From positions 945,694 to 1,009,693 of the forward strand of contig OZ245745.1 in assembly GCA_965227605.1 (NCBI GenBank): 64,000 nucleotides of DNA. Reading direction: 5' to 3'. The DNA comes from Phycisphaerales bacterium. Lineage in GTDB: Bacteria > Planctomycetota > Phycisphaerae > Phycisphaerales > UBA1924. The translations under genes were made by a program, and so were the position numbers. Below the pieces are notes generated by a model, which had not been told where the DNA came from, searched no databases, and worked only from the letters and a program-made list of their open reading frames with translations. This document shows, piece by piece, positions 3,324 through 51,825 of the stretch; position 1 is the stretch's first letter; every line of letters begins with the position of its first letter.

Positions 3324-5771
3324 ATGCCCCTCCGCTACACCGCCAGAATCCTCAAGGTCCTCCAGCAGTACGAGGACGGTGAGGCCGACGTTTCGACTCT
3401 TTCCCGCGAGCTGGGCGTCCCGCGCGAGGACCTGCCAGTCCTGCGCGAGGCGATCGAGCAGCTCATCGAGGAAGGGCACCTGATCGCCACCGAGGAGGAC
3501 TGGGTGGCGCTGCCGCCTTTGGGCGATGAGATCGTCGGGGAGTTCCGCAAGAACCCGCGGGGGTTCGGGTTCATCGTGCCGGACCAGCCGCTGGCGCACG
3601 GGGATGTGTTCGTTCCGCCGGACGCCACCAGCGATGCGCTGACGGGTGATCGGGTGCGGGCGAAGGTCGTGACGAAGAAGCGTCGCGGCGAGATCGACCA
3701 CACGGGCGTGATCGTTGAGATCCTGGAGCGCAAGCAGTCGCACTTCACGGGCGAGCTGCAGAAGCAGGGCGGGACGTGGCTGGTCTACCCGGACGGGAAG
3801 TCGCTGACGGCGCCGATCAACATCGGCGACCCGACGATCAAGAACGCGCGGGCCGGCGACAAGGTGGTCTTCGAGATCCTGAGCTACCCCGAGGGGCACC
3901 ACCTGGGGGAGGGCGTGATCGTCGAGGTGCTGGGCGAGGCCGGGGCGCCGGACGTGGAGACGCAGGCGGTCATCGCGGCGTACAACCTTCCCGGTGAGTT
4001 CCCGGAGGAGTGCGTGCAGCAGGCGCGGGAGGCGGCGAAGGGGTTTGATGAGGATGTCGATCGGGCCGAGAAATCCGGCGGTTTCGAGGGGCGCGAGGAC
4101 TTGCGCGGCACACTGATTCTGACGATCGACCCGCCGGACGCGAAAGACTTTGACGACGCGCTGTCGCTTGAGAAGATCACGCTGAAGAACGGGCAGCCGG
4201 GGTATCGACTAGGCGTGCACATCGCGGACGTGTCGCACTTCATCCCGGTGGATTCACCGCTGGATGAGGAGGCGATGAAGCGGGGGAACTCGGTGTACCT
4301 GCCGCGCAAGGTGATCCCGATGCTGCCGGAGCTGCTCTCGAACGGCGTGTGCTCGTTGCGGGAGCGGGAGCCGCGGTACGCCAAGAGCGCGTTCATTGAT
4401 TACAACCAGAAGGGCGAGGTGCAGGCGCGGGCGTACGCCTCGACGGTGATCCACTCGGCGAAGCGGATGACGTATCTCGAGGCGCAGGCGATCATCGATG
4501 GTGATCTTGAGGAAGCAAAGAAGCACGCGCGGACGGATACGGAGCCGACGCCGGAGATCATCAAGAACCTGAAGGATCTGAACGCGCTGGCGAAGGCGAT
4601 TCATACGCGCCGGCGCAAGGCGGGGATGATCCATCTGGATCTGCCCGAGGTTGAACTGATCTACGACGACGAGGGGCGGGTGGTTGACGCCGAGCCGGAG
4701 GACGACGCCTGGACGCACACGCTGATCGAGATGTGCATGGTGGAGGCGAACGAGGCGGTGGCGGTGTTGTTCGAGCGGCTGGGCGTGCCGGCGATGCGGC
4801 GCACGCACCCGGACCCGGAGGTCGGGTCGTACGAGAACCTGCAGAAGTTTCTGAAGGCGGCGGGGTATTCGATCTCGAAGGAGCCGACGCGGCATGAGCT
4901 GCAGTCGCTGCTGGACTCGACGAAGGGGCGCCCCGAGGCGCCGGCGGTGCACTTTGCGGTGCTGCGCACGCTGACCAAGGCGGCGTACTCACCCGCGATG
5001 ATCGGGCACTTCGCGCTGGCGTCGGAGGCGTACTCGCACTTCACCAGCCCGATCCGGCGGTATTGCGATCTGACGATCCACCGCCAGCTCGCGGAATTCC
5101 TGCGCCTGACGGACAACGGGTCGGACGTACCGAACAATCATGAGGCGCTGTCAAAGCTCGGCGACCGGATGAACAAGTCGGGGGTGATGCCGGACGAGCA
5201 GGCGCTGTCGGAGATCGGGGCGCGGTGCAACCGCACGGAGGAGCAGGCGTCGGGCGCGGAGCGTGAGCTGCGGAACTTCTTGGTGATGCAGCTGCTGTCG
5301 GAGAAGATCGGCGAGGTGTTCCGCGGCGTGTGCACGGGCGTGACAAAGGCGGGCGTCTTCGTGCGGATCGACAAGTACCTCGTCGAGGGTTTGGTGAAGT
5401 CGGAGGATCTGCCGACGGGCGCCGACCAGCCCGGGCCCGGGCGATGGCGTCTGGACGATCGCACGGGGGCGCTTGTGGAAGAGCGAACGAAGCGGTCGTT
5501 CAGGCTCGGCGATCAGGTGCAGGTGACGGTGTCGCAGGTGAACCTGGCGGCGAAGCAGATGGAGCTGCTGATCCCGGAGGGCGAGGCGTCGAAGCGGGCG
5601 GGCGTGGGCAAGGCGCTGAAGCTCGGCTCCGAGGGCGGCGGGCTGGGGCACGCGGAGGGCGCGGGCTTCAGCGGGAAGACCGGCAAGCAGCGGCGCGACC
5701 AGCGCTCGAAGAGCCGCGACCGGCGGAAGAAGGATTACCGGCAGGAGCGGAAGGACGGGGGGAAGCGGTAG
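3324..5771 (+). CDS. rnr: Ribonuclease R (RNB-family 3'-5' exoribonuclease with S1 domain and basic C-terminal tail)
   Basis: RNB catalytic motif region (LTIDPPDAKDFDDALSLEK). C-terminal S1-like region (GEVFRGVCTGVTKAGVFVRID). Lys/Arg-rich tail. The start is moved to the ATG at 3324 (MPLRYT), because ORF 3231 begins inside the rpoD terminator. Confidence 0.9.
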   Translation: MPLRYTARILKVLQQYEDGEADVSTLSRELGVPREDLPVLREAIEQLIEEGHLIATEEDWVALPPLGDEIVGEFRKNPRGFGFIVPDQPLAHGDVFVPPDATSDALTGDRVRAKVVTKKRRGEIDHTGVIVEILERKQSHFTGELQKQGGTWLVYPDGKSLTAPINIGDPTIKNARAGDKVVFEILSYPEGHHLGEGVIVEVLGEAGAPDVETQAVIAAYNLPGEFPEECVQQAREAAKGFDEDVDRAEKSGGFEGREDLRGTLILTIDPPDAKDFDDALSLEKITLKNGQPGYRLGVHIADVSHFIPVDSPLDEEAMKRGNSVYLPRKVIPMLPELLSNGVCSLREREPRYAKSAFIDYNQKGEVQARAYASTVIHSAKRMTYLEAQAIIDGDLEEAKKHARTDTEPTPEIIKNLKDLNALAKAIHTRRRKAGMIHLDLPEVELIYDDEGRVVDAEPEDDAWTHTLIEMCMVEANEAVAVLFERLGVPAMRRTHPDPEVGSYENLQKFLKAAGYSISKEPTRHELQSLLDSTKGRPEAPAVHFAVLRTLTKAAYSPAMIGHFALASEAYSHFTSPIRRYCDLTIHRQLAEFLRLTDNGSDVPNNHEALSKLGDRMNKSGVMPDEQALSEIGARCNRTEEQASGAERELRNFLVMQLLSEKIGEVFRGVCTGVTKAGVFVRIDKYLVEGLVKSEDLPTGADQPGPGRWRLDDRTGALVEERTKRSFRLGDQVQVTVSQVNLAAKQMELLIPEGEASKRAGVGKALKLGSEGGGLGHAEGAGFSGKTGKQRRDQRSKSRDRRKKDYRQERKDGGKR

Positions 5772-9555: not shown

Positions 9556-10985
9556 GAGGATAGCGAGAAATGCATCAGAAATGCTTCAGTAGGAACCATT
9601 TGCAAAAGCGATTCGAACCACAAGCTAAAACGCAAGGCGACAGTTAAAATTATTTAGTAGTCTTTGCAGCGTAGAGGTTTAAATAATATTGCACGCGTTC
9701 CACGATTTCATCGGCTTCGATAGAGTCATCCACTGCCTGAGTATTTTTTTCCGGTTTTAGCTGCATTCTTGTATAGACAGCTAGTAGTGGATCTGAAAAT
9801 GAGTAGCGTCCGCTAGCAGGGTCAAAGCGAACAAATGTACCTCGTTTGCTTGTTTGAAGTTCATTCAAATAATTGCTGAGGTTGCTTGCAGGATACTCTG
9901 GCGAATCTTTGTGTATAAGCTCAATTAGTTGGGCATGTGTTGCGCCTTCATCTGGCATCGAAGAAAGTGCTGTAAGAATTAAGCGTCCGTTATCATATTT
10001 TACTTCTCGATATCGGCGTATAGCTTTATCGTATCGTTTTTTGAGTGAATCTGATGATTCTCTTACGTATTCTCTGACGGCCTCGCTAAGGGAATCTTCT
10101 GAGACGGTGACTGTATCGTGCGCAGCGTGAGTGATTTCTGCGGCCCTGCATACGTTGAGAGCAATCTGGTGGCACACAGCGCCTAGGCCTGAAGAGTAAT
10201 CTATGATTCCTGAAATAACTTTGCTGGGCAAAATGATATTGAGGATTTTCTGACCTTGAGTTAGTATTTGGCCGAGTTCTTCATCGTCCATAAGGGGAAC
10301 ATGCACCTCACTAACTCTATTGGCAAGTTCTGGGTCATAATCAAGGATTTCTCGCGGGGAATCAGTTGCTCCAATGGCGATTACTTTTACTGTTGGATAA
10401 GCGCTGCTTTCGTCAACAAATACTTTTAGCGCTTGCGCTAGTTTTCCTTTGGCACCTCCAGATACTTTGTGAAAATCTTCAAGTACTAGGCACAAATCCT
10501 GTTCACCGAGCATCTGTGCTAGGCGCTGTGCAGTAAGTTGTGGTGGTACGAGTCTTTCGGCTGTTTCTGAGTTGCCGCTACTTATTCTGCTGTCGATAGT
10601 CGCACGGATAAAAGCATAGCTGGCTTGTACTGAAGCTGATTTACCTTGGCTATTTGATGCTGTTGCTGATGTTGTATAATATAAATTTAGCTGATCAAAA
10701 GCTTCAAGTAATACCTGTTCATATGTAGTGTCTTGTGTGCAGCGAACAGTCACATGGTTAGGGTACAGTTGGTGAAGCTTGTGGTAAATGAGCGAAGATT
10801 TGCCGGATCCCGACTGTCCGTATACTATCAATTGTTTTCCTGGGGTTTGTAGTGCATTGGTAATATCATTTTCTAAATCTGGTCGTTCGACAAAATTAAC
10901 TTTTGCATTTGTTCCTGGTGTAAAGACGTCATAGATAGAGTGAGGGGGTGTTGATGTAGGCATGGCTAAATATTGCAGCTTGCGC
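9556..10985. other. Low-GC (roughly 40%) compositional island, probable horizontally acquired insertion
   Basis: Abrupt drop in GC relative to flanking roughly 68% GC DNA. Carries a single gene (9650..10963). The island boundary lies inside the last codons of ruvB. Confidence 0.7.
9650..10963 (-). CDS. P-loop NTPase of unknown function (Walker A GQSGSGKS, Walker B LCLVLEDFH), foreign-composition gene
   Basis: 437-aa ORF. Walker A is LIVYGQSGSGKSSL (GxxGSGKS-type as in the FtsK/HerA/AAA-like classes). A hydrophobic-DE Walker B lies ~110 aa later. ~200-aa C-terminal domain with no recognisable motif. AT-rich codon usage unlike the neighbours. Confidence 0.7.
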   Translation of the reverse strand: MPTSTPPHSIYDVFTPGTNAKVNFVERPDLENDITNALQTPGKQLIVYGQSGSGKSSLIYHKLHQLYPNHVTVRCTQDTTYEQVLLEAFDQLNLYYTTSATASNSQGKSASVQASYAFIRATIDSRISSGNSETAERLVPPQLTAQRLAQMLGEQDLCLVLEDFHKVSGGAKGKLAQALKVFVDESSAYPTVKVIAIGATDSPREILDYDPELANRVSEVHVPLMDDEELGQILTQGQKILNIILPSKVISGIIDYSSGLGAVCHQIALNVCRAAEITHAAHDTVTVSEDSLSEAVREYVRESSDSLKKRYDKAIRRYREVKYDNGRLILTALSSMPDEGATHAQLIELIHKDSPEYPASNLSNYLNELQTSKRGTFVRFDPASGRYSFSDPLLAVYTRMQLKPEKNTQAVDDSIEADEIVERVQYYLNLYAAKTTK

Positions 10986-45152: not shown

Positions 45153-45862
45153 CAGAAGTCGAAGTTGAAGCCGGCGTAGAGGCCGGCGATGGCGCCGTCG
45201 AACTCGAAGCCGTCGTCGTCGAGGTCGGTGCGGAGGAAGCGGTAACCGAACTGGGCGCCGAGCCAGGGCTCGGGCTGCCAGAGGACGCGGGCGGCGATGG
45301 ACCAGGCGGCGCTGTCGAGGCCGGCGCCGATGTCGGCGTTGATGTCGAAGGAGAAATCGTTGGGCAGCGTGACAGTGATGGTCGCGGCGGCGAGGGCTTC
45401 GACCCAGACGCTGTCTTCGCTGACGGTCATGCCGGCGTCGGGGATCTCGATGCGGAAGTCGGTGGCGCGGAGGCCGCCGCCGACGTCGAGGCGGAGGGAG
45501 ACTTCGTCGGAGAGCTCGCGCGACCAGACGCGTTTGGTGACGAGGCCCTCGAAGCTGGCGTAGTCGGCCTCGGAGTCGATGCCGTCGGTGGAGAAGACGA
45601 AGCCGGAGAGGTGGATGGTCCAGTCGTCGTTGGTGAAGGTGGCGCGGAGGGCGGGGGTGAGTTCGTTCTCGTCGAGATTGAAGTCATCGACTTCGAAGGA
45701 GCCGACGCCGGGGAGGGTGAGGTCGTCCTGGAGGGCGGGGCGCCAGAGGAGGAGTTCGGCGGAGGCGGACCATTTGTTGGTGGGGGGAGTGGGGTCGTCC
45801 TCGGGTTGGGCGAGGGCGAGGGTTGGGGTGAGGAGGAGGATGGTTGGGGTGAGGCGGGGCAT
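45152..45862 (-). CDS. Outer-membrane beta-barrel protein (signal peptide, C-terminal aromatic residue)
   Basis: Signal peptide MPRLTPTILLLTPTLALAQ. Alternating hydrophobic beta-strand pattern. Ends ...GLYAGFNFDF. Stop overlaps the start of the thioesterase gene. Confidence 0.55.
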   Translation of the reverse strand: MPRLTPTILLLTPTLALAQPEDDPTPPTNKWSASAELLLWRPALQDDLTLPGVGSFEVDDFNLDENELTPALRATFTNDDWTIHLSGFVFSTDGIDSEADYASFEGLVTKRVWSRELSDEVSLRLDVGGGLRATDFRIEIPDAGMTVSEDSVWVEALAAATITVTLPNDFSFDINADIGAGLDSAAWSIAARVLWQPEPWLGAQFGYRFLRTDLDDDGFEFDGAIAGLYAGFNFDF

Positions 45863-45910
45863 GTGGGGGAGGGTAGCGGGGTGGGGGGAGGCACGATGCG
45901 CCCTTCGGGC

Positions 45911-45950
45911 GGATCGTGGCACCCGGAATAGTGGATCGTGGCGTCCGGAT
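45911..45950. promoter_or_regulatory. Tandem direct repeat GGATCGTGGC(A/G)(C/T)CCGGA x2 (23-nt register) in divergent promoter region
   Basis: Two 17-nt copies with 2 mismatches, 6 nt apart. ~50-90 nt upstream of the OMP gene start and ~100 nt upstream of the REC gene. Candidate operator. Confidence 0.4.
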
Positions 45951-46043
45951 TTTCGTGACTGCCGAAATGGCGGGTTGGGCTTGGTGGTTGGTGGGTGTGA
46001 CAGCGTTTGTGGGTTGGATTTGGGGGTCGGGTGAGGGTGGGGG

Positions 46044-46598
46044 GTGGTCCGGGCTTTGCCATCTGATGAGGCGATGGTCGAGATCGAACCGCCCCATTCT
46101 GGTTCCGATTCCGGCGGCGCTCGCCGTGGGGGTCGGCTGAACCTTCTGCTGACCGACGGCGGGTGGCGCGAGGAGTCGTGGGCGGATCGTCTGCCGCGGC
46201 TTCTCGAGCCGATGGGCGTGCGTGCGGTGCGGGCGGGGTGCGGTCGTGAGGCCGCGGAGACCCTGCGGAAGACGCCCGTGCACGCTGCGGTGCTCGATCT
46301 GAGCTTGCCCTTGGACGCCCGCGTGCGTCGGGCGGCGGACGCGTCGAACCGCCTGGCGGTGCGTCTGAACGAGGGGGGCGTACGGCTTCTGGAGTATCTG
46401 GCCCGGCTGGAGCAGCGGCCGCCTTTGGTCGTGGTGCGTCAGCCGCGGAGCCAGCGGGAGGACCAGCGGGTGCTGGCCCTGGCGATGAAGCTGGGGGCGT
46501 TCGCGGTGGTGGACCGCCCGGTGGACCTTGAGGCGATGCTCCAGATCCTGTCGCGATTACTTGAGCGGCACTACCGCGGGCGTTGGCCCGGCGTTTGA
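46044..46598 (+). CDS. Single-domain response-regulator receiver (REC)-like protein
   Basis: CheY-like pattern: LNLLLTDGG (acidic pocket, partly degenerate), AAVLDLSLP (phospho-acceptor Asp position), conserved Lys in ALAMKLGAFAVVDRP. Start may be the ATG at 46074. Confidence 0.5.
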   Translation: MVRALPSDEAMVEIEPPHSGSDSGGARRGGRLNLLLTDGGWREESWADRLPRLLEPMGVRAVRAGCGREAAETLRKTPVHAAVLDLSLPLDARVRRAADASNRLAVRLNEGGVRLLEYLARLEQRPPLVVVRQPRSQREDQRVLALAMKLGAFAVVDRPVDLEAMLQILSRLLERHYRGRWPGV

Positions 46599-46680
46599 TT
46601 ACACACTGAACCACTCACACCACTTCAACCCCGGGGAGACCCGGGCCTGAACGATTCTGAGAACGAAGGAGACACTGAAC

Positions 46681-47007
46681 ATGGCGACGGCGACGAAATC
46701 GAAGAAGAAGATCACCACCAAGGTCCGCCCGCTGGGCGACAAGGTGCTCGTGCAGCGCGACGAGTCGGCGGAGGTGACCGAGTCGGGCATCTACCTGCCC
46801 GAGCAGGCCAAGGACAAGCCTAAGTCGGGCGTGATCGTGGCGGTGGGCGACGGCGCCCTCTCGACCGAGACGGGCGAGCGCACGCCCATGACCGTCAAGA
46901 AGGGCGATCGCGTGATCTTCGCCAGCTACGCCGGCACCGAGGTGAAGCTGGGTGACGACGAGCTGCTGATCATGAGCGAGGATGAAATCCTCGCGATTGT
47001 GGACTAA
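46681..47007 (+). CDS. groES: Co-chaperonin GroES
   Basis: 108 aa. VRPLGDKVLVQR ... GIYLPEQAKDKPKSGVIVAVGDG ... VKKGDRVIFASYAGTEVK is canonical GroES. RBS GAAGGAG. Confidence 0.95.
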   Translation: MATATKSKKKITTKVRPLGDKVLVQRDESAEVTESGIYLPEQAKDKPKSGVIVAVGDGALSTETGERTPMTVKKGDRVIFASYAGTEVKLGDDELLIMSEDEILAIVD

Positions 47008-47029
47008 TTACCAACCAAGCGGAGGCCAT

Positions 47030-47410
47030 ATGAGCACAGTCACAGAACATCATTCAATCACGGTTCCCATCTTTTCACGTCGATGGGGCCACGATGATAA
47101 CTGGACTTTCACAATGACCGACGAAGGGTGGGTAATCCAACTGGGTGCTCACACAGCACATGTCATCATTGAGCCCAAGGACGAAGTTCGTCCCAGCGAA
47201 ACGCTCTCAAAGTGGGCTAGAAATGACATGGTGACGCTTCCTGCTGGAACAACTGGATTTCTCGAGCATGTGTGGAGCCGTGCTCAGGAAGAAACGTTGT
47301 CTCGCGAACAGGTCAAGGCTGCGATCGAAGACATCGCGGAGTGGATTAACGCCACATCGAAGAGCAGGCCCAAGCGTGAAGAGGGTTTGTTTCACGAGTA
47401 CTTCGGTTAA
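47030..47410 (+). CDS. Hypothetical protein (126 aa), first gene of intra-groESL cassette
   Basis: ATG at 47030 preceded by GGAGG. No recognisable motif. Confidence 0.5.
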
Positions 47411-47412
47411 AC

Positions 47413-47616
47413 ATGACTTCCGACCAGCTCCGACAAGCGCTCGGCGAGCTCAACTCTGAGCGGGACGCCGAGTTTCATTTCGAGGGCGCTCCCCCGTGTC
47501 TGGTGCCTGGGGCGATCCTGATCCCTGACGAGGCGGACCATCTGGTCAAGGTTTCGGACGGGAAGCACGTCTACCTGATCGACGCGGAGCGCGTCGCCTG
47601 GGTCAAGATCGGGTAG
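47413..47616 (+). CDS. Hypothetical small protein (67 aa), second gene of intra-groESL cassette
   Basis: ATG 3 nt after the previous stop, suggesting coupled translation. No recognisable motif. Confidence 0.4.
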
Positions 47617-47698
47617 CCGCAAGATCGGTTGAGCGCACTTCGACACAAACACCAACACGCACATCAACGCACGACGAAACGATAAGGAACGAACGAAC

Positions 47699-49333
<1,635 letters not shown>

Positions 49334-49383
49334 GTCGAGAGCACAAAAAGTTCGGCCGCCTTTAACCGGGCGGTCGGGCATTC

Positions 49384-50217
49384 ATGGTCGTCCTTGACAA
49401 TCAGCGGGCGTTGAACGCAAGGCATCGTCGTGGCTATTGCTATCTTTGTGGCAAGCCATTTGAGCGCGAAGACATCACAAAGGACCATGCGCCTCCGATC
49501 AATCTCTTTGATCAAAATGATCGACAAAACGTTGTAATACTACCAGCTCATTTTAAATGTAACCAAGCAGCGTCATTCGACGATGAACGATCGATACAAT
49601 TACTAACTCCATATCTATGGGGTAACTCGATATCAAAAGATCGGCTACGCTTGAACTATCGCGCAGTTCACGACGAAAACACTCAACGGAATATAGGTGG
49701 AATCCGGGGAGCCGAACTTTACAGAGCTATATACCGTTGGATTCAAGGCTTTCATTGTCTGTTGTACGATGAATTTTTGCCACCACATCCAGTGACGAAG
49801 CATGCCATATCTTGCCCTCTGTATAGAGGTGTTGAACAAGAAGACGAGATGAAGATGCACGGACCTCAGCCTGCTCACCGTGTAATGGTTCGGCAATTAC
49901 GTATCAACAGACTGGCGTCGCGAGTGGATCGGATTGAAGCGTACAACGGTAAATTGAAGTATGAGTGCTGCTGGGTACGTATGGATGATGGGAGCCCAGC
50001 ATGTCTCTGGGGTATGCAAATATATGATTGGGAGAAGCTGACTCCTCAAGAATTTTTTCCTAAGCACGGCTGTGTCGGTTTTTATTTATCGTCTAATGGT
50101 AAGCCTGTGCGGGCAGAATGGTCTACGAGCGTGGAATACGATCATTCGTTGGATGATCTTTTACCCTTCGACTCTGCAGAGTCCCCTGCGACAGCGCCCC
50201 AGAATCCGACAGACTAA
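49384..50217 (+). CDS. HNH (His-Me finger) nuclease-domain protein with ~190-aa C-terminal domain of unknown function
   Basis: The N-terminus CYLCGKPFEREDITKDHAPPINLF ... ILPAHFKCNQ fits the CxxC / DH / H..CN HNH pattern. The rest is Cys/Trp-rich and unassignable. Confidence 0.6.
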   Translation: MVVLDNQRALNARHRRGYCYLCGKPFEREDITKDHAPPINLFDQNDRQNVVILPAHFKCNQAASFDDERSIQLLTPYLWGNSISKDRLRLNYRAVHDENTQRNIGGIRGAELYRAIYRWIQGFHCLLYDEFLPPHPVTKHAISCPLYRGVEQEDEMKMHGPQPAHRVMVRQLRINRLASRVDRIEAYNGKLKYECCWVRMDDGSPACLWGMQIYDWEKLTPQEFFPKHGCVGFYLSSNGKPVRAEWSTSVEYDHSLDDLLPFDSAESPATAPQNPTD

Positions 50218-50367
50218 GTGTAGTGCTGGTTGTGAATCTATTAGCGATTTGAAGGACTTTCCTGACAGCCGCTTCATTGTCGTCTACTTCTGAACTGCCG
50301 CAAACCCTTCAAGCGACTCTTCCAACGCATTGGCAAACTTCACGGCCTTCACGCTTACCCACAGCAC

Positions 50368-50399
50368 GAAAAAACCGGCCCCAATCACTCGGGGCCGGT
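50368..50399 (-). terminator. Rho-independent terminator for the PEP-CTERM gene (minus strand: CCGGCCCCGAGTGATTGGGGCCGG plus T7)
   Basis: 8-bp GC stem, followed by TTTTTTT on the minus strand, 20 nt after the stop of 50421..51167. Confidence 0.65.
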
Positions 50400-50420
50400 C
50401 GGGACAAGATTTCGTAATGA

Positions 50421-51167
50421 TCAGCGTCGGCGGCGGAACGCCCCCAGCCCTCCGGCCAGCAGGAGCGCTGCGCTGGGGGAAGGCACGATCTCGATGTCCT
50501 GGCTGAAGGTGAGGAAGCGGTTGGCTTCGGAGTCGATCCAGTCGATCGAGGCGAATGTGCCTGTGAAGATGTTCGAGACGATGGTCGGGTCGCCGGTGAG
50601 GTTTGGAACGGACGTCACCTCATCGACATCGCCAAGGATCGTGAACTGGCCGGCGAAGATCAGCCAAAGGCCTGTGTCGGGGTCCTGCATACCGTTCGGG
50701 CCGCCGGCGTGCCCGGGGTAGATGGTGGGGAGGCCCTTGTTTTCGGGCACGCCGGACCATGAGCCGTCCACGCCGTCACTGACGAACTCGAGGTCGGGGT
50801 TGGCCGAGGTCGTGGATGGGGCGGTGATCGGCCCGACGCTCACATAGCTGTCCCACTCGGAGGAGGGCACGGCCGGGAAGACGGCCGGGTTGATGTTTTG
50901 GGAGCTGTCGCCGCCGAACGGGTCCTGGTAGAGCTGCAGGCCGTTGCGCGTTCTGACGCTGTCGGTACCCGCGAACATGGTGAGCAGCGTGTTTTCCGGG
51001 TCATCGAAGGCGATGTAGAGGCGGGTGACGGTGGCGGCTTGGCCGATGGCGGCGGTCGCGGCGGCGTTCCAGGAGTCATCGGTGAGGAACACGCCGCCGC
51101 GGAAGTCGGCGGGGGCGGCGAGCGCGGGGAGCAACGCGACGGCGAGTGCGCATGGATAGCGTTTCAT
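50421..51167 (-). CDS. PEP-CTERM sorting-domain secreted protein
   Basis: Signal peptide MKRYPCALAVALLPALAAPA. The C-terminus VPSPSAALLLAGGLGAFRRRR is a PEP-like motif, then a TM helix, then an Arg cluster. Confidence 0.75.
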   Translation of the reverse strand: MKRYPCALAVALLPALAAPADFRGGVFLTDDSWNAAATAAIGQAATVTRLYIAFDDPENTLLTMFAGTDSVRTRNGLQLYQDPFGGDSSQNINPAVFPAVPSSEWDSYVSVGPITAPSTTSANPDLEFVSDGVDGSWSGVPENKGLPTIYPGHAGGPNGMQDPDTGLWLIFAGQFTILGDVDEVTSVPNLTGDPTIVSNIFTGTFASIDWIDSEANRFLTFSQDIEIVPSPSAALLLAGGLGAFRRRR

Positions 51168-51294: not shown

Positions 51295-51825
51295 TCAACG
51301 CGGTTTTTTGCGTGAGACAGCCTTCTTCTTTGTGGTTTTCTTCTTCGTGGTCGCCTTCTTCCGCGCCGGGCGCGGGGCTTCGAGCGAGCTCTCGTACGCC
51401 TTGATGAATTTCTTGACGGTCATCCGCTTGACGGTTTTGGCGATGACGTCGAGCGGGACGTCTTCCAGCTTCTTGAAGCGGACGCAGCTTTTGCCCATGT
51501 CGAGCTTGTGGCCGGTGTTCTTCCACGCCTCCTGGAAGCGTTCGACCTCGCCCTCGTCGCAGTAGAGGCAGAAGAGGTAGAGGGCCATGTGGTTCTTCTG
51601 GCTGGCGAGGCTGAGGAAGGGGAGGGGCTGTTTGGGGTTGCAGTGGTAGCCGGCGGGGTAGACGGAGTGGGGGATGGCGTAGCCGATCATGCCGTACTGG
51701 ATGACCTCCCTGACCTGGGGGTCGAGGTTGTCCTTGATGGCCTTGCGGATGGCTTTGATGGCTTTGCGGCGGTCGTCTGGGAGCTCTTTGAGGTACTCGC
51801 TGACGGTGGGGGCGGCGCTTTGCAT
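51295..51825 (-). CDS. DUF1801 (YdhG-like) domain protein with Lys-rich C-terminal tail
   Basis: YdhG/DUF1801-like core (QYGMIGYAIPHSVYPAGYHCNPKQPLPFLSLASQKNHMALYL). C-terminal KKATTKKKTTKKKAVSRKKPR. Confidence 0.55.
   Translation of the reverse strand: MQSAAPTVSEYLKELPDDRRKAIKAIRKAIKDNLDPQVREVIQYGMIGYAIPHSVYPAGYHCNPKQPLPFLSLASQKNHMALYLFCLYCDEGEVERFQEAWKNTGHKLDMGKSCVRFKKLEDVPLDVIAKTVKRMTVKKFIKAYESSLEAPRPARKKATTKKKTTKKKAVSRKKPR

Follow-up and report, generated by a model that had tools for sequence, protein, structure and literature searches.

The groES and groEL genes form one of the most conserved two-gene operons of bacteria, in which the two genes are normally adjacent. To our knowledge, no conserved third member of this operon is known, and the searched literature yielded no description, for Planctomycetes or Phycisphaera, of a gene that separates groES from groEL. 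A second described system that bears on the locus reported here is Vch_cass3 (PDB 3FY6), a Vibrio cholerae integron cassette protein with a novel dimeric alpha+beta fold, which is the founding member of its family (PMC3548836).

In the window, by which we mean the whole 64-kb stretch of DNA that was analysed, groES and groEL are separated by 691 nt that hold two intact ORFs on the same strand, here called ORF1 and ORF2. An earlier note on this DNA had described the gap, the coordinates of both ORFs, the GGAGG ribosome-binding site (RBS) of the first and a separate RBS for groEL, all of which were borne out; the RBS of groEL is of the AAGGAA type. The features of the locus are as follows.

46044..46598, plus strand: receiver-like (response-regulator-like) gene, 184 aa, directly upstream of groES; weak Response_reg match
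46681..47007, plus strand: groES (Cpn10), 108 aa; Pfam Cpn10 E 2.6e-33, GC3 0.93
47005-47007, plus strand: groES stop codon TAA
47008..47412, plus strand: putatively foreign inserted segment, 405 nt, GC ~0.51 (or perhaps 47008-47410, should the 'AC' spacer be native)
47021..47025, plus strand: GGAGG RBS of ORF1, read from the sequence, lying within the insert 4 nt 5' of the ATG
47030..47410, plus strand: ORF1, 126 aa, a short stand-alone member of PF21648 (M1E1E6-like / Vch_cass3 'integron cassette protein'), probably horizontally acquired
47413..47616, plus strand: ORF2, 67 aa, an apparently native acidic small protein with a predicted Sm/Hfq-like beta-barrel
47617..47698, plus strand: ORF2-groEL spacer, CA-rich, carrying the groEL RBS AAGGAA
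47699..49333, plus strand: groEL (Cpn60), 544 aa; Pfam Cpn60_TCP1 E 3.2e-76

We propose, with a probability of about 0.85, that this arrangement is explained by a native three-gene operon, of which ORF2 is the middle member, into which a single foreign insertion brought ORF1. The two ORFs differ in composition. ORF1 has a GC content of 0.51 and a GC3 of 0.55, while ORF2 is host-like (GC 0.64, GC3 0.82) and groES and groEL both have a GC3 of 0.93. Because the dip is limited to ORF1, the low-GC stretch amounts to ~405 nt (47008-47412) and one gene; the lower-GC segment of ~690 nt described in the earlier note thus holds for ORF1 and not for ORF2. ORF2 begins 2 nt past the stop codon of ORF1. Scanning of the plus strand from 46681 to 49333 found no terminator-like site, and with none to separate groES from groEL, transcription of the operon probably includes ORF1. 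No sigma-70-like site was found on the plus strand inside the operon by a scan whose coverage leaves out planctomycete promoters. On sequence grounds, both ORF1 and ORF2 would be translated and co-transcribed with the chaperonin genes. A search for Rfam-type RNA elements across 45500-50500 returned only a gyrA RNA match at chance level (E=1), and the ORF2-groEL spacer in particular has neither an Rfam match nor a plus-strand terminator-like site. A 16-nt imperfect tandem duplication (47604-47619 / 47620-47635; CAAGATCGGGTAGCCG / CAAGATCGGTTGAGCG) runs from the end of ORF2, stop codon included, into this spacer; it is missing from the two close relatives L002 and L001 and explains part of the greater length of the spacer in the window.

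The position of ORF2 was followed through 80 groES loci from species-representative genomes, all of them Phycisphaerales, Phycisphaeraceae or Planctomycetota MAGs, which were found with the window GroES at identities of 59-87%. By tblastn, an ORF2 homolog of 67-82 aa and 48-99% identity separates groES from groEL in 75 of the 80 loci, or 75 of 79 informative ones, one locus ending right after groES. Ascertainment through groES was avoided by a look-up based on ORF2 itself, in which all 11 places had the order Cpn10, ORF2 homolog, Cpn60; the place between the chaperonin genes, on the same strand, is therefore kept across the lineage in both samples (75/79 groES loci and 11 ORF2-ascertained loci). 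Four loci are without ORF2, two of them empty between groES and groEL and two with a different small gene in its place, so ORF2 is not indispensable. The adjacency of groES and groEL that the earlier note took as the norm does not describe this lineage, whose members have groES-ORF2-groEL.

ORF2 is also under strong purifying selection, with 17 synonymous codon differences and 1 nonsynonymous difference from its counterpart in L002. A profile search of 5.8 billion proteins yielded ~1,279 clusters for the family; wherever a cluster bears a name, it is "hypothetical protein", and Pfam domains are absent throughout. The family alignment has 10 invariant residues, among them R7, R17 and K46, and its consensus begins MTxDQLRQALxELNGERDA. 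Given the conserved place in relatives and the codon differences from L002, ORF2 is best read as a native, selected member of a groES-X-groEL operon and, by the same sequence comparisons, as an old, vertically inherited one. The normal chaperonin operon of the lineage would accordingly consist of three genes, namely groES, an acidic protein of 67-82 aa (ORF2) and groEL. In the four closest relatives (L002, L001, L093 and L094, with 85-89% nucleotide identity over ORF2-groEL), the gaps between groES and ORF2 are 7, 11, -1 (a TGATG overlap) and 5 nt, respectively. The junction in these four genomes is, to judge from this spacing, translationally coupled, and coupling of ORF2 to groES (stop and start -1 to +11 nt apart) would be the usual state. 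The groEL proteins of L001 and L002 are 91-94% identical to that of the window by tblastn. Upstream of groES, a homolog of the receiver-like gene is present in 80/80 relatives (tblastn); its Response_reg match is weak (Pfam, E 8.8e-5, residues 111-169), a terminator-like hairpin stands at its end (46577-46590), and its product could be a regulator of the groESL operon. One record among those collected is of a different nature: L081 (CP070897.1, 'Leptolyngbya sp. 7M', 6073703-6083936) places a Phycisphaerae-type groES-ORF2-groEL segment within a cyanobacterial chromosome record, with Cpn10 fused to an RNA_pol_L fragment and Cpn60 truncated to 310 aa, and looks like a chimeric assembly or contamination. 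A contig look-up with the exact sequences of ORF1 and ORF2 found no record.

What ORF2 might do was approached through its predicted structure. The AlphaFold (AF2) model, computed for a single chain from an alignment built from database hits, is confident (pLDDT 89.5, pTM 0.72) and has an N-terminal helix followed by five strongly bent antiparallel strands, as would be expected of an Sm fold. Structural comparison placed it closest to Sm-like proteins, Hfq and WYL domains, and many of the top hits were Hfq structures. At the level of sequence, the ORF2 family has no match in Pfam, NCBIfam or the PDB, and a search of PDB sequences with the family profile came back empty. Links of ORF2 to the Pfam families CedA, FlbD, DUF3107 and YajR_YAM were considered and rejected, these matches being sub-threshold and scattered; with 74 queries, the best of them (E 0.0025) is not significant.

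The predicted fold raises the alternative that ORF2 is an Hfq-like RNA chaperone or regulator acting on groESL mRNA or on stress RNAs, and not on the chaperonin. The many Hfq structures among the best matches and the invariance of R7, R17 and K46 speak for this view. However, none of the 74 family members matches the Hfq, LSM or WYL Pfam models (Hfq and LSM at E<=1), and alignment of ORF2 with E. coli Hfq by hhalign gave a probability of 0.1%. Furthermore, the family is acidic (median pI 5.5; 4.7 for the window protein), which is weakly against general RNA binding, and its invariant residues cluster in an acidic P-D-E-x-D-H ... K-x-T-D-G segment and not at Sm1/Sm2-type motifs, so that the sequence signature of Sm proteins was not found. 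Its acidity and lack of Sm/Hfq motifs make it improbable that ORF2 is an RNA-binding Hfq of the classical kind, and we regard an Hfq-like, RNA-binding role, the chief alternative for ORF2, as rather doubtful. Our call, based on the model, is that ORF2 is a predicted Sm-like small barrel of a new family, distinct from Hfq.

From the fixed position of ORF2, its coupling to groES and the lack of internal terminator-like sites, the best hypothesis is a role tied to the chaperonin or the heat-shock response. Most likely, ORF2 acts with the chaperonin or is co-regulated with it; it might be, for instance, an accessory factor that forms rings, or a binding protein induced by stress. Rings of 6 or 7 subunits are common among Sm-like proteins, and both GroES and GroEL are heptamers, so that an accessory factor in the shape of a ring would be an appealing possibility. 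The ORF2 family is thus a concrete candidate for a new chaperonin-associated or heat-shock-co-regulated factor, and we found no description in the searched literature of a three-gene groESL of the Phycisphaerae with an unannotated third gene.

ORF1 presents a different picture. When the window is aligned with the same four closest relatives (MAFFT, blastn), the alignments stop at 47007, the groES stop codon, and restart at 47413, the ATG of ORF2. In one genome, then, 405 nt of foreign DNA carrying ORF1 and its own Shine-Dalgarno sequence would have been inserted exactly into the groES-ORF2 junction. ORF1 is absent from all 80 groES loci by tblastn, and also from two further relatives whose ORF2 is at least 90% identical; it forms a singleton cluster, seen on one 2.76-Mb contig, and a word-indexed search returned only its self-match. 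The insert (47008-47412) is not flanked by direct or inverted repeats. Its two junctions have in common only a 3-nt TAA, contributed on the left by the groES stop and on the right by the ORF1 stop, which is followed by AC-ATG; this shared TAA is too short to be meaningful on its own.

The family to which ORF1 belongs could be identified with confidence. ORF1 matches Pfam PF21648 at 54.5 bits against a cutoff of 27, over model positions 2-102 of 104, and matches PDB 3FY6 at an E value of 1e-9. It shares the two-layer alpha+beta fold of this solved member and, in an alignment of 34 members, keeps the family residues S-x-RWGHxD (RW-G-H-x-D), ND, W82, W105 and P114. No more than 166 relatives emerged when 1.84 billion representatives were searched exhaustively with HMMER, and the best of these is 39% identical. 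Contigs hosting the family range in GC from 0.25 to 0.68, and seven are viral, with the gene lying among PHROG-positive phage genes; other loci belong to variable regions or closely follow housekeeping operons. None of 37 other loci of the family is near groES, groEL or an ORF2 homolog, which, with the phage, variable and defence contexts, identifies ORF1 as mobile cargo. In a metagenome scan that used a tighter alignment than the 34-member family alignment, 14 loci were recovered; restriction and defence genes predominate among their neighbours, which include HsdS (5), HsdR (3), GmrSD (3), DarT and DUF4411-PIN/IrrE. Since relatives occur in integron cassettes, phages and restriction-modification or defence islands, a role for ORF1 in phage-host conflict is plausible and our best guess.

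The defence-island association of PF21648 belongs mostly to a long, two-gene form of the family and not to the short stand-alone form represented by ORF1, which is without both the N-terminal extension and the partner gene. In the long form, to which many of these relatives belong, the gene for a PF21648 protein of ~218 aa, with an N-terminal domain of ~105 aa, is followed by that for a conserved partner of ~225 aa (range ~215-237 aa) that is 37-76% identical between loci and has no Pfam match. The module often lies between hsdS and hsdR of Type I restriction-modification (R-M) loci, and on viral contigs too. Its occurrences are:

L102:3671-5037: long-form PF21648 module
L103:3671-4975: long-form PF21648 module
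L105:3656-5017: long-form PF21648 module
L114:3671-5002: long-form PF21648 module
L108:3668-5510: long-form PF21648 module
L084:4902-6400: long-form PF21648 module
L099:3617-4980: long-form PF21648 module

PADLOC 2.0 contains neither the long-form protein nor its partner, and has no model for ORF1; the long-form module is a candidate for an uncatalogued defence-island module. Two further observations concern TIR domains. In P0177, an ORF1 relative of 369 aa, a sub-threshold PF21648-like region (17.2 bits; cutoff 27) is joined in one chain to a TIR_2 domain at the C-terminus (E 1.7e-22), and in L087 a separate TIR_2 gene lies ~2 kb from a PF21648 gene.

As to the route of entry, ORF1 would have come from a mobile source by illegitimate, non-integron recombination; the most economical reading is a microhomology-mediated or non-homologous insertion that kept ORF1 tight against ORF2. 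The founder of the family being a V. cholerae integron cassette protein, one may ask instead whether ORF1 is a true integron cassette that an integron integrase put into a secondary (non-attI) site. The insert consists of one promoterless ORF and has the size of a cassette, and a GTTAAAC heptamer, which fits the GTTRRRY core, stands exactly at its right boundary (47406-47412). Such cores, however, occur in the window at chance frequency (70 observed against 65 expected), within which this one falls, and the left boundary does not read TTRRRY. The attC-like imperfect palindrome of a cassette is also missing. Folding of 47290-47415 and 47335-47415 on either strand gave z scores of -0.06 to -0.88 relative to shuffles, single-stranded folding of the ORF2 region on both strands produced no attC-like hairpin, and an inverted-repeat search found no attC-type repeat at the insert. 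Moreover, the insert is located inside groESL and not in an integron array beside intI/attI, and tblastn with an IntI1 query found no IntI-like gene in the window at E<1. We therefore consider a literal integron cassette improbable and retain illegitimate insertion as the preferred route.

ORF1 is carried by one genome only, so neither gain nor artefact is directly observed; the gene might instead have been present in the ancestor of the clade and been lost by every relative sampled, or an assembly chimera might have produced the insert. Ancestry would, however, require many losses, each precisely restoring a coupled junction, and would have to accommodate both a GC3 (0.55) far from host values and the fact that no homolog is closer than 39-41% identity, the nearest occurring in unrelated contexts. 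Against a chimera stand the clean, in-frame junctions, the functional-looking RBS, the 2-nt spacing to ORF2 and the 2.76-Mb contig. We judge both versions highly improbable.

The weakest reading, that ORF1 and ORF2 together form one mobile toxin-antitoxin or immunity cassette set between an adjacent groES and groEL, draws on the 2 nt between the ORF1 stop and the ORF2 start, on the small sizes of both and on the lower GC of ORF1, but can be set aside as scarcely credible, given that ORF2 occurs without ORF1 in 75/80 relatives and in all ORF2-ascertained contexts, that its codon usage is host-like, that it is under purifying selection, that an ORF2 homolog adjoins ORF1 relatives in 0/37 loci and that no toxin-antitoxin or defence model matches. 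Searches of ORF1, ORF2 and an HNH-like ORF described below against Pfam, NCBIfam, PADLOC and PHROGs returned only PF21648 and weak HNH matches. Because ORF2 is without ORF1 in every relative, the two co-occur nowhere else, and all 37 ORF1-relative loci being without ORF2, the pairing was rejected; ORF1 and ORF2 do not, we infer, form a functional pair. The coupled toxin-antitoxin or immunity module that the earlier note had suggested is thereby abandoned, whereas its other suggestion, an integrated cassette, survives for ORF1 alone, which is absent from relatives, has foreign codon usage and belongs to a mobile family; it fails for ORF2, and for ORF1 in the literal sense of an integron cassette. 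Likewise, the observation which that note had named as telling against it, that relatives would keep these genes in the operon with codon usage of the native kind, was made for ORF2 and not for ORF1. For genome annotation, an appealing toxin-antitoxin call is thus corrected.

Small additional genes between groES and groEL were also found in relatives of the window genome, and fall into the following groups.

L050:6390-6614, between groES and ORF2: 75-aa "MERGP...IWLDASHVS" family
L064:6416-6640, between groES and ORF2: same "MERGP" family
L069:1192-1419, between groES and ORF2: same "MERGP" family
L078:6344-6571, replacing ORF2: same "MERGP" family
L080:6347-6574, replacing ORF2: same "MERGP" family
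L006:6438-6692, between groES and ORF2: member of an 84-aa pair, 70% identical to each other
L015:6387-6641, between groES and ORF2: second member of the 84-aa pair
L004:6343-6588, between groES and ORF2: single ORF
L020:6325-6564, between groES and ORF2: single ORF
L065:1520-1840, between groES and ORF2: single ORF
L046:6574-6870, between ORF2 and groEL: member of a related pair of 90-98 aa
L077:6656-6928, between ORF2 and groEL: second member of the 90-98 aa pair

The five proteins of the first family (~75 aa, 'MERGP...NGI-I-T-QN-IWLDASHVS') are 61-82% identical to one another. None of the slot ORFs of relatives has a Pfam match, and some are lower in GC than the host contig. The possibility that they are diverged ORF2 paralogs was tried and dropped, homology not being demonstrable at hhalign probabilities of 0.7%, 10.8% and 0.3%. 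In L014, the ORF2-groEL spacer (3672-3905) is 234 nt long, with a GC of 0.43 in a contig of GC 0.67 and no credible ORF, and may be what is left of another insertion, or else a non-coding element. By these sequence comparisons, the groES-groEL interval appears to behave as a variable slot for small foreign or lineage-specific genes, a repeated use of which we found no description in the searched literature.

A broader reading would make the ORF2 family a class-wide third component of the Phycisphaerae chaperonin system, Sm-like, possibly ring-forming and co-produced with GroES and GroEL, and the interval a privileged landing pad for small accessory genes. We offer this only tentatively, as a proposal with the odds against it. 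If it were true, the genes in the landing pad (the PF21648 gene, the 'MERGP' family and others) would ride on stress-induced expression.

Other genes of foreign appearance were noted in the window. A 277-aa ORF (49384-50217, plus strand) starts 50 nt past the groEL stop codon, is of strongly foreign composition (GC 0.47, GC3 0.44), forms a singleton cluster and has weak N-terminal matches to HNH endonucleases (Pfam E ~0.004-0.008; PHROG HNH families E 7e-5); it is found in 0/80 relatives. With ORF1 and this HNH-like ORF, two separate foreign genes touch the groESL operon of this genome. Downstream of groEL the close relatives differ, and synteny with L002 resumes only at 51339. Farther away, a low-GC island at 9650-10963 on the minus strand (GC 0.43, GC3 0.33) holds the gene for a STAND/AAA_16-type NTPase of 437 aa (Pfam AAA_16 E 2.7e-9, nSTAND1 E 1e-6), which looks like a further horizontally acquired gene, possibly of the defence type.

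Compared with known systems, the locus combines familiar and unfamiliar traits. With the canonical bicistronic groESL it shares the order and orientation of the genes, and no terminator-like site was detected here within the operon; it differs in that this lineage has a third conserved gene between both chaperonin genes in ~95% of informative loci, and an additional small gene in the slot in ~15% of loci (13/80, 2 of them replacing ORF2). Sm, LSm and Hfq barrels, including the Sm-like XC5848 and WYL domains, have in common with the ORF2 model the helix and five bent strands, yet the identity of 6-17% amounts to no sequence-level relationship, and ORF2 is acidic and carries a different conserved motif. 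ORF1 is only ~25-30% identical to Vch_cass3 and, unlike the latter, is without an integron array or attC and lies inside a planctomycete housekeeping chaperonin operon; the family name of PF21648 conveys no mechanism for it. The nearest parallel to ORF1 in its manner of residence is provided by accessory genes of the 'moron' type, or defence genes, that reside in operons of the host or of Type I R-M systems. Like these, it is one foreign ORF that brings its own RBS and stands where transcription of the host operon is usable, and its closest relatives with known context are found in Type I R-M loci, beside GmrSD, DarT or PIN genes, or in phages. In contrast to such genes, ORF1 stands without a prophage, recombinase, defence partner or defence-model match, and its case bears on how mobile cargo exploits strong housekeeping promoters.
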